Positions 1,781-64,000 of a DNA stretch of 64,000 nucleotides are shown piece by piece. The stretch lies in the NCBI GenBank assembly GCA_017992455.1, contig JAGOOP010000001.1, positions 59,723-123,722 on the forward strand, given 5' to 3'. The translations under genes were made by a program, and so were the position numbers. The notes beneath the pieces are model-generated. The model was given only the letters and a program-made list of their open reading frames with translations, was not told the DNA's origin and made no database searches. The stretch's first letter is position 1, and each line of letters begins with the position of its first letter. Origin of the DNA: Candidatus Omnitrophota bacterium. GTDB taxonomy: Bacteria; Omnitrophota; Gorgyraeia; Gygaellales; Profunditerraquicolaceae.

Positions 1781-1932
1781 GCTGTCGTGGCATAGTGTCT
1801 CGGGGACGTTCGCCGGCCCCGGCGTGGCCGGCTCACTCGGTTCCGCCCCTCACTCTGCCCGACCGATCAGCCTGCGTGGCATCCGTGCCCGTTCGGGGCT
1901 TCACAAGCCCCTCGACACTATGCCACGACAGC
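1781..1932. ncRNA. structured intergenic element E1: 19-bp perfect closing stem plus a ~114-nt GC-rich core (family with 62714-62885 and 21702-21935)
   Basis: 1781-1799 gctgtcgtggcatagtgtc is the exact reverse complement of 1914-1932. Internal hairpins at 1812-1832, 1878-1889 and 1895-1911. The core aligns with E4. Functional strand is unresolved. Confidence 0.6.
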
Positions 1933-31426: not shown

Positions 31427-31483
31427 GGCCTGCGGGACCTATTTCTGAAAGCGCTTTCAAAACACAGGGACGGTTCTCCCCAA

Positions 31484-31565
31484 GGCTAAAAAACGGGGTC
31501 AGAATTATTTATTTGCCGCGATGCGCTTAGCTAACAAATAAATAATTCTGACCCCGTTTTTAGCC
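31484..31565. terminator. very long AT-rich hairpin; probable bidirectional terminator after hppA
   Basis: The 32-nt arm at 31484-31515 pairs with 31535-31565 (one bulged A) across a 19-nt loop. The inner stem GGGGTCAG.../...CTGACCCC is flanked by an A6 and a T5 run. Confidence 0.7.
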
Positions 31566-31570
31566 CTTGC

Positions 31571-38010: not shown

Positions 38011-38925
38011 TTATTTTTTTTCGGCAAGATAGCGAAAGGCGCTTAAGCAGGCTTTTGCACCCTCCCCGGCTGCGATGATGATCTGTTTCTCCGGCACATC
38101 GGTGACGTCGCCCGCGGCAAAAACGCCCGGGATATCAGTCCGGTTCCTGCAATCGATTTTTATTTCGCCGAGATCGTTCGTCGCGACCTCTTGTGCAAAG
38201 CCGGAATTGGGCACAAGGCCGATCTCGATAAAGATACCCTGCACCGCAAGGCGTTTCTCCGTGCCTTCATGCGAGATCGCAATGCCGCTGACGAACCGAT
38301 CCCCGGTAATGGCAGTAACCTGCGCATTATTCATGATTGTCACGCCCGAAGACGATGCCGCTTTTTCGGCCATAACCTTATCGCCGGTGGTCTGCGGAGC
38401 ACTGTTGATCACATAGGTGTGTTGAGCAATGCGCGTCATCTGCAAAGCCGCATCAAGGGCTGAATTGCCTCCGCCCACGATTGCCACGTCCTTGCCGCCG
38501 AACAGCGGGCCGTCGCACGTGGCGCAATACGTCACGCCCTTGTTCTTGAATTCATTTTCACCCGGGACACCGAGCTCCCGGGACCGTTTCCCGGACGCGA
38601 TGATCACTGCCCGGGCCTCATACTCCGCTTTATCGGTAATGACGCGCTGCCCGGAGCCGGCGCCGCGCTTCAGAGCAACGATCTCTTCCGATTCCTTCAG
38701 ATCGATCCGGTACTGGCGCAGATGCTCCTCGAATTTCGCCGCAAGCTCGGGGCCGGTCACGAACTGATACCCGGTGTAATTCTCAACGTCCCCGCTCCAC
38801 GCCGCCTGGCCGCCGATGTCTTTGGAAATAACGCAGAAGTCCATGCGCTTGCGGGCGGCATATACCGCGGCAGTTATGCCCGCCGGCCCTGCGCCGATAA
38901 TGATCAGGTCATAGATTTTTGTCAT
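38011..38925 (-). CDS. thioredoxin-reductase / AhpF-like FAD-dependent disulfide oxidoreductase
   Basis: 304 aa. IIGAGPAG, redox-active CATCDG and GGGNSA motifs. Confidence 0.85.
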   Translation of the reverse strand: MTKIYDLIIIGAGPAGITAAVYAARKRMDFCVISKDIGGQAAWSGDVENYTGYQFVTGPELAAKFEEHLRQYRIDLKESEEIVALKRGAGSGQRVITDKAEYEARAVIIASGKRSRELGVPGENEFKNKGVTYCATCDGPLFGGKDVAIVGGGNSALDAALQMTRIAQHTYVINSAPQTTGDKVMAEKAASSSGVTIMNNAQVTAITGDRFVSGIAISHEGTEKRLAVQGIFIEIGLVPNSGFAQEVATNDLGEIKIDCRNRTDIPGVFAAGDVTDVPEKQIIIAAGEGAKACLSAFRYLAEKK

Positions 38926-38938
38926 AGATCGTTGCTGC

Positions 38939-39020
38939 GGGCATGGGTATGTGTCCGATGCGAGTTCCGCAGCCCTGAAAGGGCGAGGACTGTTCGAGCA
39001 GCGGGCACATACCCATGCCC
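38939..39020. ncRNA. intercistronic hairpin E3: 18-bp stem plus a 46-nt interior, possibly a reduced member of the E1/E4 family
   Basis: GGGCATGGGTATGTGTCC (38939-38956) pairs with GGGCACATACCCATGCCC (39003-39020), with one G-U when read on the + strand. The interior holds GCCCTGAAAGGGC and GAGTTCCGCAGCCCT. Confidence 0.45.
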
Positions 39021-39034
39021 TCGCGCGCCGTATA

Positions 39035-39274
39035 TTACGATAATCCCAGTGCCTGCTCTATCTTCGGCCTGTCGAAGCCGACGATGATCCGGCCGTCTAT
39101 CTCGATGACCGGCACGCCGAGCTGTCCGGATTTGCGAACCATTTCGTCCGCTTTTCCCTGATCAATACCGACGTCGTAATTTTCATAGGCAATACTGTTC
39201 TCCGCAAGGAACTGTTTCAACCGGATGCAATGCGGACACGACGCGGTGCTGTACACGAGTATCGTATGGGCCAT
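39035..39274 (-). CDS. glutaredoxin-like protein (CPHC active site)
   Basis: 79 aa. VYSTASCPHCIRLKQFL...GVPVIEIDG. Confidence 0.85.
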   Translation of the reverse strand: MAHTILVYSTASCPHCIRLKQFLAENSIAYENYDVGIDQGKADEMVRKSGQLGVPVIEIDGRIIVGFDRPKIEQALGLS

Positions 39275-49267: not shown

Positions 49268-49295
49268 GAAACCCTCCTCACGAAAATGATAAAGA

Positions 49296-49329
49296 CAGGG
49301 GTCAATAGGCATATGCCTACTGACCCCTG
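49296..49329 (-). terminator. intrinsic terminator
   Basis: CAGGGGTCA...TGACCCCTG stem with an inner TAGGCA/TGCCTA palindrome. A U-rich tail follows on the minus strand. Confidence 0.65.
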
Positions 49330-49350
49330 GCGTTATGCGTACCGCGCAAC

Positions 49351-61200: not shown

Positions 61201-61457
61201 TGCCGTATGGCCCTTTCATAATCTAAAAGCGTTTTTTTTCTGCGAAGCCCGAACACGTACCCGCCGAGCGAATGATCGCTGGCGATCACCCGGTGGCAGG
61301 GGATGATCCCGGGCCACGGATTGTGCTTCAGTATTTGCCCGACCGCGCGGCACGCGCCGGGCCTGCCCGCTTGAGCGGCGACCCATCGATACGACCGCGT
61401 CTGCCCGACGGGAATGGCGCTGACGATACGGTAGACTTTCCGCGCAAAAGGAGTCAT
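61179..61457 (-). CDS. ogt: methylated-DNA--protein-cysteine methyltransferase (active-site domain only)
   Basis: 92 aa. PCHRVI active site and the HTH part. ATGA overlap with uvrC. Confidence 0.85.
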   Translation of the reverse strand: MTPFARKVYRIVSAIPVGQTRSYRWVAAQAGRPGACRAVGQILKHNPWPGIIPCHRVIASDHSLGGYVFGLRRKKTLLDYERAIRQCLLTRK

Positions 61458-62704
61458 GATCCGAAGGTCTTTTTGCTGTGAAGAAGATGATGGTATGCCC
61501 GCGCAAACCGGTGCGCCTCGTCCCTGACCCTGCGGATCAGGTTCAACGCAGGAGTATCGTGCTTAAGCCGGACGGGCTTGTCCCTGCCTTTAATATACAG
61601 GTTCTCGTCCTCTTTGGCAATACTTAACAGCGCGCATGATACCCCGAGGCCCGCGAGGACCTCCTGAGCGGCTGCCAGGTGCTGTTTCCCGCCGTCAATG
61701 ATCACCAGGTCTGGCAAGCCGGCGCGCTCCGTTGTCAGGCGCGCGTACCTGCGCCGCACCACTTCCCTGATCATGGCGTAATCGTCGATGCCCGAGACCG
61801 TCTTGATCCTGAAGCGGCGGTAATTCTTTTTATCGGGCGCGCCTTTATAAAAGCTCACCATCGAACCCGTGGCCTCCTGGCCGGAGATATTCGAGATATC
61901 GAACCCCTCGATGCGCAGCGGCATATGCTTCAGGCCCGCCAGATGCTTGAGATCCTCAAGCTGGTCGGCGCTGGTAAAATGCACGGTATCCCTGCCGATA
62001 GCGCAGAGCGCGAAGATCCGGTCGCGCAATACAGCCGCATCTTCGAACCGGCGCTCCTCAGACGCCCGGCGCATCTCGAACGACAGCGTATCGATGAGCT
62101 GCTCGTATTTCGAATCGAGGAACAAGCGGATATCGCGGATGATCCCGGCATATTTCTGCGCATCGATGAGGCCGGCGCACGGCGCAGGGCACAGCCTGAG
62201 CCGGTGATACAGGCACGGCCGGGCAGGCATGGACGCGCACGTGCGGAAACCGAATATCTTGCGCACGGCCTTGAGCGCCTGGCGCAGGACCTTTGAATTC
62301 GCGTACGGGCCGTAATATACCGCTTTGTCTTTCCTGCGCTTTTCCGGGTCCTTGTTGCGGCATATCGTTATCGCGGGAAACGCATCGTCCGATATCCTGA
62401 TCAGCGGGAACGATTTGTCGTCTTTCAGGCTGATATTATACTGCGGCTGTTTTTCCTTGATAAGCGACGCTTCGAGAAGCTGGGCCTGGAATTCAGTGGG
62501 GGTGAGGATATATTCAAGGTCAAAGATACGGCCGACGAGCGCCTGGGTCTTTGCCGAAAGGAACCGGTTGAAATACGACTGCACGCGCTTTTTGAGGACC
62601 TTCGCCTTCCCTATATATATGATATTGCCGGAAGCGTCCTTGTAGATATAGACGCCCGGGGCTTCGGGAAGCGCATCGACTTTTCGCTTAAGTTCTGTAT
62701 CCAT
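61454..62704 (-). CDS. uvrC: excinuclease ABC subunit C, short form lacking the C-terminal (HhH)2 domain
   Basis: 416 aa. GIY-YIG (PGVYIYKD..IIYIGKA), UVR domain, and EGFDISN...IIDGGKQHL...VRDEAHRFA. It ends just after this block. Confidence 0.85.
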   Translation of the reverse strand: MDTELKRKVDALPEAPGVYIYKDASGNIIYIGKAKVLKKRVQSYFNRFLSAKTQALVGRIFDLEYILTPTEFQAQLLEASLIKEKQPQYNISLKDDKSFPLIRISDDAFPAITICRNKDPEKRRKDKAVYYGPYANSKVLRQALKAVRKIFGFRTCASMPARPCLYHRLRLCPAPCAGLIDAQKYAGIIRDIRLFLDSKYEQLIDTLSFEMRRASEERRFEDAAVLRDRIFALCAIGRDTVHFTSADQLEDLKHLAGLKHMPLRIEGFDISNISGQEATGSMVSFYKGAPDKKNYRRFRIKTVSGIDDYAMIREVVRRRYARLTTERAGLPDLVIIDGGKQHLAAAQEVLAGLGVSCALLSIAKEDENLYIKGRDKPVRLKHDTPALNLIRRVRDEAHRFARAYHHLLHSKKTFGS

Positions 62705-62713
62705 CGTATTCCC

Positions 62714-62885
62714 GTTGCGGCATCCGTTCTGCCTGCGTCCTCAGGGACGCTCCTGCGGCCCCGGCGTGGCCGCAGTCGCTCGATTCCGGCCCCTCGCTCT
62801 TGCAGACCATCATTGGCAGCGGCAATCCATGCCCGCTCGGGGCCTCCAACGCCCTTCGGATCGCAGGCAGAACGGATGCCGCAAC
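62714..62885. ncRNA. structured intergenic element E4: 24-bp perfect closing stem plus a conserved core (second copy of the E1 family)
   Basis: 62714-62737 gttgcggcatccgttctgcctgcg is the exact reverse complement of 62862-62885. The core is collinear with E1, including the 17-nt identity cggccccggcgtggccg. Confidence 0.6.
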
Positions 62886-62890
62886 CTGAA

Positions 62891-64000
62891 CTATGAACGG
62901 ATCCCGAACATCTTCGAAAAACTCTTGATCTGCTCGATCCGGAGGGCATGGCACATGATGACGTACGCGGCGATGCCGCAGCCGATCGGAAGCGCGAGAT
63001 CGAATGCGCGGACCAGCAGGTGATTACGCAGGGCGACGTGGTATGTCGAGGCGATAAAGCAGACCTCGCCCATGATAATGCTGGCGCACAGCACCCGGAA
63101 CGAAAATTCAAGCAGGCCCCGGACGCGGAATCCACCCAGTTTCCTGCGCAATATCATAAAAAGCATCAGAAAACTGCTGATGCCCGATATCGACGTCGCA
63201 AGCGCCAGGCCGGACAGTTTGAGCGGGAACATAAAGATCGCGTTCAGGCAGACGTTGAGGACAAGCGCGATCGCGGCGACCTTTGCCGGCGTCACCGTGT
63301 CCTTGATCGCGAAATATCCGCACTGCACGATGCGCGTCGCTCCGTACGCGAACAGCCCGATGCTGTAGAAAAATAACGCGCCCGACGTGATCCCGGTCGA
63401 ATACGCATTGAACCTGCCCCCCTGGAACAGGGAAGATATGACCGTCTTTGAGAGGACCATGAACCCGACGGACGCGGGTATCATGACAAAAAGAACGGAA
63501 CGAAGGCCGAAAAGAAGCGTTTCTTTCAACTGCGCGTGATCCCCTTCGGCCGCCCGGGAAGAAAGCGCGGGCAGGATCGCCTGCGACAGCGAATTCCCGA
63601 ATATGCCCAGCGGGAACTGGATCAGCCGGTACGCGAAATAAAGCGCGGCAACGCCGCCGTCGCCCACGATCCAGGCAAGCGACCCGAAAATGGAATCGGC
63701 AAAGTTATTCAACTGATATATTGCCGAGCTGAAAAGCCGCGGCGTCAGCAGAACGCCGATCCGCCTGACCGCAGGATGGCCAAACCGCGCTGACGGTTGA
63801 AAACGGAACCCTTTCCGGTATAACATCGGCAGCTGGATGGCAAGCTGCAGCGCGCCGCCGATAAGCACGCCTGATGCAAGGCCCGTGGTCCCTTCCCCCC
63901 ACGCAAGCGCGCACAGAATGATCGAAATGTTCAACAGGCAGGGCCCGAACGCGGGAAGCGTAAAATGGCGCAGAGAGTTCAGGACCGCAGTGCAATACGC
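62891..64000 (-). CDS. murJ: lipid II flippase MurJ (N-terminal part outside the window)
   Basis: The frame stays open to position 64000; the track start is an internal TTG. Polytopic, with typical MurJ C-terminal half sequence (FGHPAVRRIGVLLTPRLF...). Confidence 0.85.
   Translation of the reverse strand, partial: AYCTAVLNSLRHFTLPAFGPCLLNISIILCALAWGEGTTGLASGVLIGGALQLAIQLPMLYRKGFRFQPSARFGHPAVRRIGVLLTPRLFSSAIYQLNNFADSIFGSLAWIVGDGGVAALYFAYRLIQFPLGIFGNSLSQAILPALSSRAAEGDHAQLKETLLFGLRSVLFVMIPASVGFMVLSKTVISSLFQGGRFNAYSTGITSGALFFYSIGLFAYGATRIVQCGYFAIKDTVTPAKVAAIALVLNVCLNAIFMFPLKLSGLALATSISGISSFLMLFMILRRKLGGFRVRGLLEFSFRVLCASIIMGEVCFIASTYHVALRNHLLVRAFDLALPIGCGIAAYVIMCHALRIEQIKSFSKMFGIRS

Follow-up and report, generated by a model that had tools for sequence, protein, structure and literature searches.

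E4, a long inverted repeat that separates murJ from uvrC in a bacterium of the phylum Omnitrophota, is probably a non-autonomous mobile structured repeat and belongs to an undescribed family found in a clade within the Omnitrophota. Homologues of the encoded proteins assign the window to this phylum. This reading rests on ten copies from seven independent sites. The window, that is, the whole stretch of 64,000 nucleotides analyzed, contains a second copy, E1, upstream of purD.

Results

The E4 inverted repeat

E4 occupies the whole gap between the murJ stop codon and the uvrC ATG, and both genes are encoded on the minus strand (Table 1). A preliminary description of this DNA had stated that the 24-nt arms of E4 are exactly complementary, that E4 and E1 share a core on the same strand, and that the left arm ends 9 nt from the uvrC start. 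All of this was borne out by the sequence, the A of the ATG being at 62704. When two mismatches were allowed, the inverted repeat extended to 62709-62890 (29 nt, 93% complementarity). By chance, ~9e-8 inverted repeats with perfect 24-nt arms would be expected in 64 kb, and the fold of E4 had z-scores against shuffled sequences of -8.3 and -8.7 on the plus and minus strands, respectively. The E4 sequence was unchanged in two independent public assemblies (L001 and L002) and is therefore not an assembly artefact. The chance expectation, the two identical assemblies and the eight copies found elsewhere refute the explanation that E4 is a chance palindrome or an artefact of assembly.

The 17-mer CGGCCCCGGCGTGGCCG occurs exactly twice in the window, at 1814 and 62756. 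The E1 core (1799-1914) aligned in the same orientation with the E4 sequence at 62740-62858; the alignment spans 121 nt and is 75% identical (E=1e-15). As for the downstream gene, the domains listed for the UvrC homologue were GIY-YIG, UvrC_M, UVR and RNase H-like, with helix-hairpin-helix not listed; the same short make-up was seen in nearly all of the Omnitrophota relatives listed.

Table 1. Positions of E4 with its substructures, its flanking genes and E1 in the window
Feature	Position	Strand	Description
uvrC, downstream gene	61454-62704	-	UvrC homologue, 416 aa
murJ, 3' part, upstream gene	62891-64000	-	Runs off the window; stop codon TAG 62893-62891
E4 left arm	62714-62737		24 nt; perfect complement of 62862-62885; imperfect pairing out to 62709
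E4 conserved core	62738-62861		124 nt, three-way junction
E4 inner closing helix	62743-62746 / 62852-62855		AGGG / CCCT
E4 hairpin A	62749-62779		Outer GC/GC pairs around the stem CTGCGGCC 62753-62760 / GGCCGCAG 62768-62775
E4 domain B	62788-62844		Helix GGCCCC 62788-62793 / GGGGCC 62839-62844, inner GC/GC pairs
E4 domain B, inner helix	62800-62803 / 62822-62825		TTGC / GCAA; encloses the variable-sequence loop
E4 right arm	62862-62885		Imperfect pairing to 62890, flush with the murJ stop codon 62891-62893
E1, second family copy	1781-1932		19-nt perfect arms 1781-1799 / 1914-1932

E1 and other repeats of the window

E1 is flanked by the stop codon of a band-7/SPFH gene (1973-1975) and the ATG of purD (1748). 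It belongs to a different subfamily from that of E4, one common to E1 and L014. The arms of E4 and E1 were 33% identical, and those of E1 resemble the family consensus TGTCTTGGCAG. The E4 arms are thus unlike those of E1, as stated earlier, but family-wide the arms are divergent homologues and not unrelated sequences.

E1 and E4 were the only family members detected in the window by nhmmer and a covariance model with filters off. In the rest of the window, the covariance model returned just generic hairpins at 31492, 38937, and 49290 (13-20 bits on both strands). An imperfect inverted repeat at 38914-39045, directly beside a minus-strand gene start, is probably the element that had been named E3 alongside E1 and E4. 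With the covariance model it scored 18.6 bits on one strand and 14.9 bits on the other, and it was not detected by nhmmer; it is a generic hairpin and not a demonstrable member of the family. Two long GC-cored palindromes, at 31481-31569 and 49289-49336, have GGGGTCA...TGACCCC in common and are unrelated to the E1/E4 family. The former has 35-nt arms with 91% complementarity and resembles a bidirectional terminator in that an A-run and a T-run border it.

A family with conserved cores and variable arms

Metagenomes were scanned with a core pattern. Seven of the 33 matches were real as judged by nhmmer, and they lay at unrelated loci. Look-ups with XerD homologues added L047, L048, and L049. 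Ten copies including E1 and E4 were aligned; eight are in other Omnitrophota contigs, and the ten represent seven independent genomic sites. In a collection of species-representative genomes, the strict core pattern yielded two chance matches (Acidimicrobiales and Acidobacteriota). Viral contigs gave no match to three patterns, and there was none in plasmid and phage collections. No Rfam family matched at the gathering score, and with E-values up to 10 only chance-level matches appeared.

The elements are about 190-220 bp long, and their indels are not multiples of three. Core identity among copies was 70-99% with the variable loop excluded, and the unpaired stretches of the core were nearly invariant. 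Arm identity between copies was 33-67%, except for the strain pair L040/L047 (93%). The local complementarity score of an arm with its own partner was 20-32, compared with 5-18 for arms of other copies. The description of a conserved core with copy-specific but internally complementary arms therefore applies to the family as well. Most copies carry TGTCTTGGCAG.GTTGT beside the core and an outer GTTGC...GCAAC motif, E4 being the outlier, and within the terminal repeats only the sub-terminal motif CTTGGCAG is semi-conserved. The copies L027:1740-1932 and L036:2535-2722, from different loci of the same JGI sample (Ga0265297), had cores that were 97-98% identical and arms that were only 46% identical. 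This contrast suggests that the arms change very fast or are replaced on copying.

An origin of the arms by copying from flanking DNA was rejected: the longest words shared with a copy's own flanks were 5-8 nt, and the mean for the flanks of other copies was 6.1. The 8-mer ATCCGTTC common to the E4 arm and the murJ end was also within chance.

Covariation in a three-way junction

RNAalifold gave the same architecture on both strands. The consensus fold consists of the arm closing helix with an inner GGG/CCC helix, hairpin A, and domain B, in which GGCCCC/GGGGCC, GC/GC, and TGCC/GGCA pairings surround the variable loop. Every copy was shown to have a long closing stem around the conserved three-way-junction core. 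Across the ten copies, 93.6% of the pair cells were paired, compared with 36-48% in slid-partner controls. Covariation, which the preliminary description had put forward from E1 and E4, was strong in all five helices: 28 of 46 pairs were changed on both sides, only one showed a one-sided change, and none of 500 shuffles reached any of five measures.

The first hairpin described earlier, with two compensatory pairs between E1 (GCCGGCC/GGCCGGC) and E4 (TGCGGCC/GGCCGCA) around the loop CCGGCGT, is present and covaries. This is hairpin A, in which six of nine stem pairs covary across the family and the loop (62761-62767 in E4) is the same in nine of ten copies. By contrast, the two 3' hairpins of that description (GGCA/TGCC and GGGGC/GCCCU) showed no covariation and were broken in three to four of the ten copies. 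They are replaced by domain B, whose competing helices 4 and 5 do covary, for example from G-C to A-U in L048 and to C-G in L014, or from TGCC/GGCA to TTGC/GCAA to CCCTGC/GCAGGG. A type II hammerhead checked by eye (CUGAGGA ... GAA) failed in other copies (CUGAACA), and the Rfam models were silent.

Pairing is strand symmetric

The pair cells were Watson-Crick in 421 of 454 cases, and G-U pairs numbered four when read on the plus strand and seven when read on the minus strand (about 1% on either strand). With respect to the neighboring genes, the element was antisense at four sites (E1, E4, MBL/xerD, and L036) and sense at three (L014, L027, and L033). Neither a sigma-70-type promoter nor an intrinsic terminator was found within E4. 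Given the G-U symmetry, the occurrence in both orientations, and the lack of a promoter or terminator, the proposal of an RNA of the plus strand is unsupported. Its G-U argument had rested on the GGGGC/GCCCU hairpin, which covariation does not support, and the placement noted for E1, E3 and E4, 5' of a gene start in minus-strand operons, is not a rule, since three of the seven independent sites have the opposite orientation to their genes. The near absence of G-U pairs and the single one-sided change are unlike typical RNA families and give no strand. They are what one would expect if the constraint, or the mechanism, operates on the duplex or on the two strands alike. The earlier interpretation, selection on a folded nucleic acid, is partly upheld: the conservation of structure is real, but it is neither RNA nor strand specific, and the element is mobile.

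E4 and E1 are absent from the same junctions of relatives

We compared the occupied junctions with those of relatives. In L005-L008, whose UvrC is 84% identical, murJ and uvrC are 2 nt apart with neither arm nor core between them, and in L042 (UvrC 76% identical) the spacing is 4 nt, again without arm or core. At the E1 junction in L051 (PurD 83% identical), the band-7 gene and purD overlap in ATGA. In L044-46, the gene for an MBL-fold hydrolase and xerD likewise overlap in ATGA; a copy of the element lies at this junction in L031, L048, L049, L040, and L047. The empty tight junctions of the relatives indicate that E4 (~186 nt) and E1 (~224 nt) are lineage-specific insertions. Sequence comparison thus shows that E4 is an insertion, that the family is a dispersed one, and that a site occupied in one genome can be empty in another. 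The possibility that a palindrome already existed at the target was rejected, as the genes at the empty sites are only 0-4 nt apart and nothing of the arms is present there. L033 and the window were unusable as an empty-site pair, synteny breaking beside a tRNA.

The preliminary description had called the conserved core with copy-specific arms the opposite of a MITE. As a contrast to mobile elements in general this does not stand: relatives lack both E1 and E4, which are insertions, and copies of the family lie at loci that are unrelated to one another. Of the marks of mobility that it named, conserved arms were not found, the arms being variable, and no target-site duplication was clear. No direct repeat was visible at the E4, E1, L040, L031, and L027 junctions, although a degenerate AAATGA on both sides is possible at E1.

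Some further features of these junctions were observed. In JGI sample 3300075153, murJ and uvrC are 174 nt apart in one relative (UvrC 82% identical), where the junction may likewise be occupied, and another contig of that sample has a 61-nt MBL-xerD gap, which may be the remnant of a lost copy. At 62640-62704, the first five uvrC codons differ from those of the element-free L005/L006 (MDTE.. versus MINHG..). The new 5' end of uvrC shows partial complementarity with the 3' end of murJ, and the start region may have been rebuilt after insertion.

Tight junctions as targets and a model of translational coupling

All three reconstructed empty sites were tight stop/start junctions containing ATGA, and tight junctions make up roughly 1% of non-coding bases by our own estimate from the L044 gene table. 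The family demonstrably prefers such junctions. All four copies at tight junctions were antisense and all three in spare intergenic DNA were sense, which by our own Fisher estimate corresponds to p~0.03 in a tiny sample.

In the mRNA sense, the 5' arm of E4 begins directly after the murJ stop, and 4 nt separate the end of the 3' arm from the uvrC AUG. The fold predicted in this sense has a stem that extends further, so that the uvrC AUG is paired with the last murJ codons. The stem would loop out the insert and place the upstream stop and the downstream start side by side, as they were before insertion. With this proximity restored, translational coupling could survive the insertion; a ribosome terminating on murJ may open the base of the stem and so allow initiation on uvrC. 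We infer that such loop-out coupling would explain why the insertion is tolerated and why pairing of the arms is kept without their sequence being kept.

Maintenance of the arms and possible selection on the core

Perfect hairpins can arise and persist through template switching between inverted repeats during replication, which also yields apparent compensatory changes in one step (PMC8794818). Template switching (quasi-palindrome correction), selection acting on the mRNA of the operon, or the two together may keep the arms paired. Beyond the strong arms, complementarity faded into the flanks, including the coding ends, rather than stopping (p=0.002), and this gradual loss is in line with a mutational process. 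In the near-identical strains L040 and L047, four of five differences were in the arms; the corresponding rates (4/62 arm positions versus 5/264 four-fold sites, p=0.07) are suggestive only.

The core may be conserved as the cis-acting part read by a trans-acting mobilizing protein, which would recognize the fold and the internal sequence and not the terminal repeats. At the MBL/xerD junction, the four-fold sites of the two genes were saturated (38-50% identical between L031 and L040, 35-39% between L031 and L048), whereas the cores were 92% (L031/L040) and 85% (L031/L048) identical and the arms 61-65% identical. If these copies are orthologous, this result argues for strong host-level purifying selection on the core and a function beyond mobility. 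However, the core tree is incongruent with the host tree, the L031 core being 92% identical to that of E4 and 85% identical to that of its nearer relative L048. With this incongruence, the junction preference, and only ten copies, the occupied junctions may instead reflect repeated insertion from a conserved active lineage.

Discussion

Comparison with known repeats

In its working, the family is closest to ERIC, bcr1, and Correia elements, which are small, structured, co-transcribed operon repeats, and it is a homologue of none of them. Like ERIC (IRU) of the Enterobacteriaceae (about 127 bp), it is a small non-coding imperfect palindrome in operon intergenic regions, which here are presumably transcribed too, occurs in either orientation, differs in presence or absence between relatives, and is conserved above expectation. 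There is no sequence similarity, however, and ERIC is conserved over its full length and TA-flanked, whereas in the present family only the non-palindromic core is conserved, the arms are copy specific, and no duplication is seen. ERIC has been reported to change mRNA fate (PMC3184786). Transcription is also known for bcr1 (about 155 bp), a repeat of the Bacillus cereus group whose cruciform-like fold of several hairpins is kept by compensatory changes; together with ERIC it sets a precedent for repeats that are structured, co-transcribed, and compensated in this way (PMC3184786). Both bcr1 and the present family are dispersed with no conserved location, but bcr1 has 5-bp direct repeats and conserved ends, occurs in a different phylum, and shows no similarity. 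Imperfect palindromy, an intergenic position in operons, both orientations, and compensatory changes were all found here and place the family in the ERIC/bcr1-type class, which is a functional class and does not imply homology.

In Correia elements (NEMIS) of Neisseria, too, long inverted repeats at the termini pair into a stem within a co-transcribed mRNA. Correia elements undergo processing by RNase III, and they have terminal repeats with a conserved sequence of 26 nt and a TA duplication. They differ from the present family in carrying a promoter and IHF sites, and here the sequence of the arms is free. Correia elements affect mRNA stability (PMC3184786). REPINs are hairpin forming, non-autonomous, and intergenic, and evolve within a genome as a population (PMC3116915). 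The present family shares these properties, but in REPINs, which are RAYT-mobilized REP doublets, the REP arms are conserved palindromes of 20-40 nt and the spacer is free, the reverse of the situation here. An assignment to REP/REPIN was rejected, the arms being the variable part and no RAYT being found in any locus examined.

Integron attC sites follow a logic like that proposed for the present family, recognition of the fold rather than of the arm sequence, and their stems too are Watson-Crick paired. An attC site has 5'-RYYYAAC ... GTTRRRY-3' boxes with conserved ends and a variable center, and lies in a cassette array with intI. The present elements are not attC sites: the box polarity is reversed, the center is conserved, the neighbors are housekeeping genes, and there is no cassette array or nearby intI. 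In retrons, the a1/a2 inverted repeats of msr/msd flank a non-coding RNA and adjoin a reverse transcriptase gene. The genes flanking the present elements (murJ/uvrC, band-7/purD, and MBL-fold hydrolase/xerD) include no reverse transcriptase, which excludes a retron. As in MITEs, the elements are small, non-coding, and dispersed, with insertion polymorphism at E4, E1, and MBL/xerD, but the conserved terminal inverted repeats of MITEs are lacking (arms 33-67% versus core 70-99%). Measured as an RNA family of the Rfam type, the elements have covariation, but neither a strand-specific signal nor a match to a curated family. What is distinctive is the conserved non-palindromic three-way-junction core combined with free paired arms and the preference for tight junctions.

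Alternative explanations

Terminal repeats that are not conserved and the lack of an unambiguous target-site duplication stand against mobility. A classical transposase would need conserved terminal repeats, and no autonomous partner or transposase was identified at the loci examined. E4 could instead serve the host as a structured RNA, either as a module for cis-regulation or processing or as a small RNA; its fold and core would be under purifying selection, and mobility would be no more than the mode of arrival. The covariation of all five helices and the nearly invariant unpaired core are consistent with such an RNA, as are the 85-92% identity of same-junction cores despite saturated synonymous sites and the predicted sequestration of the uvrC AUG; the transition mismatches in the mRNA sense (seven G-U compatible versus three not) tend in the same direction, but this is our own tally and not significant. 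We nevertheless regard a host RNA as unlikely, given that the pairs have no G-U strand asymmetry (4 versus 7 of 454) and one one-sided change among 46, that copies occur in both gene orientations without a promoter, terminator, or Rfam family, that close relatives do without the element at the same junctions, and that the trees of the core and of the hosts disagree.

A single-stranded or cruciform DNA form may be what matters, as the substrate of a structure-specific recombinase or an HUH-type enzyme, in the way known for attC sites of integrons and for the ends of IS200/IS605 and REP elements. A folded-DNA substrate would explain why the stems are Watson-Crick only and why insertion occurs at one kind of site and in one orientation. 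Consistent with it are the absence of strand bias, the free arms around a conserved core, the lack of a visible target-site duplication, the three of three empty sites that are tight ATGA junctions, and the four of four tight-junction copies in the same orientation. Yet the outer motif 5'-GTTGC...GCAAC-3' has a polarity reverse to that of the attC R''/R' boxes, the conserved center and variable ends are the opposite of attC, the ends of IS200/IS605 elements are not long terminal inverted repeats, and none of the copies has a gene for an integrase, RAYT, or TnpA beside it. We therefore think it very unlikely that this form accounts for E4. The insertion of a non-autonomous mobile repeat remains the explanation that we prefer. 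A bolder version, which we hold to be rather improbable, is that the family represents a new kind of mobile module, in which an internal 120-nt three-way junction would be recognized, insertion would be targeted, in one orientation, to ATGA-type junctions where the stop and start codons of translationally coupled genes overlap or nearly do so, and loop-out by the stem would keep coupling, possibly with domestication as an intercistronic RNA.

Significance

The family adds a repeat type from a phylum known almost only by metagenomes. Its design inverts that of MITEs and REPINs in having a conserved core and arms that are free but always paired, and the three of three tight target junctions raise the question of how insertion is targeted and tolerated. 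The family also offers a clean test, set up by nature, between selection on RNA and template switching of DNA as the process that preserves perfect stems. Should the stem indeed preserve coupling across a 186-nt insert, a neat principle open to testing would emerge; otherwise, the family would be one more structured intergenic repeat.
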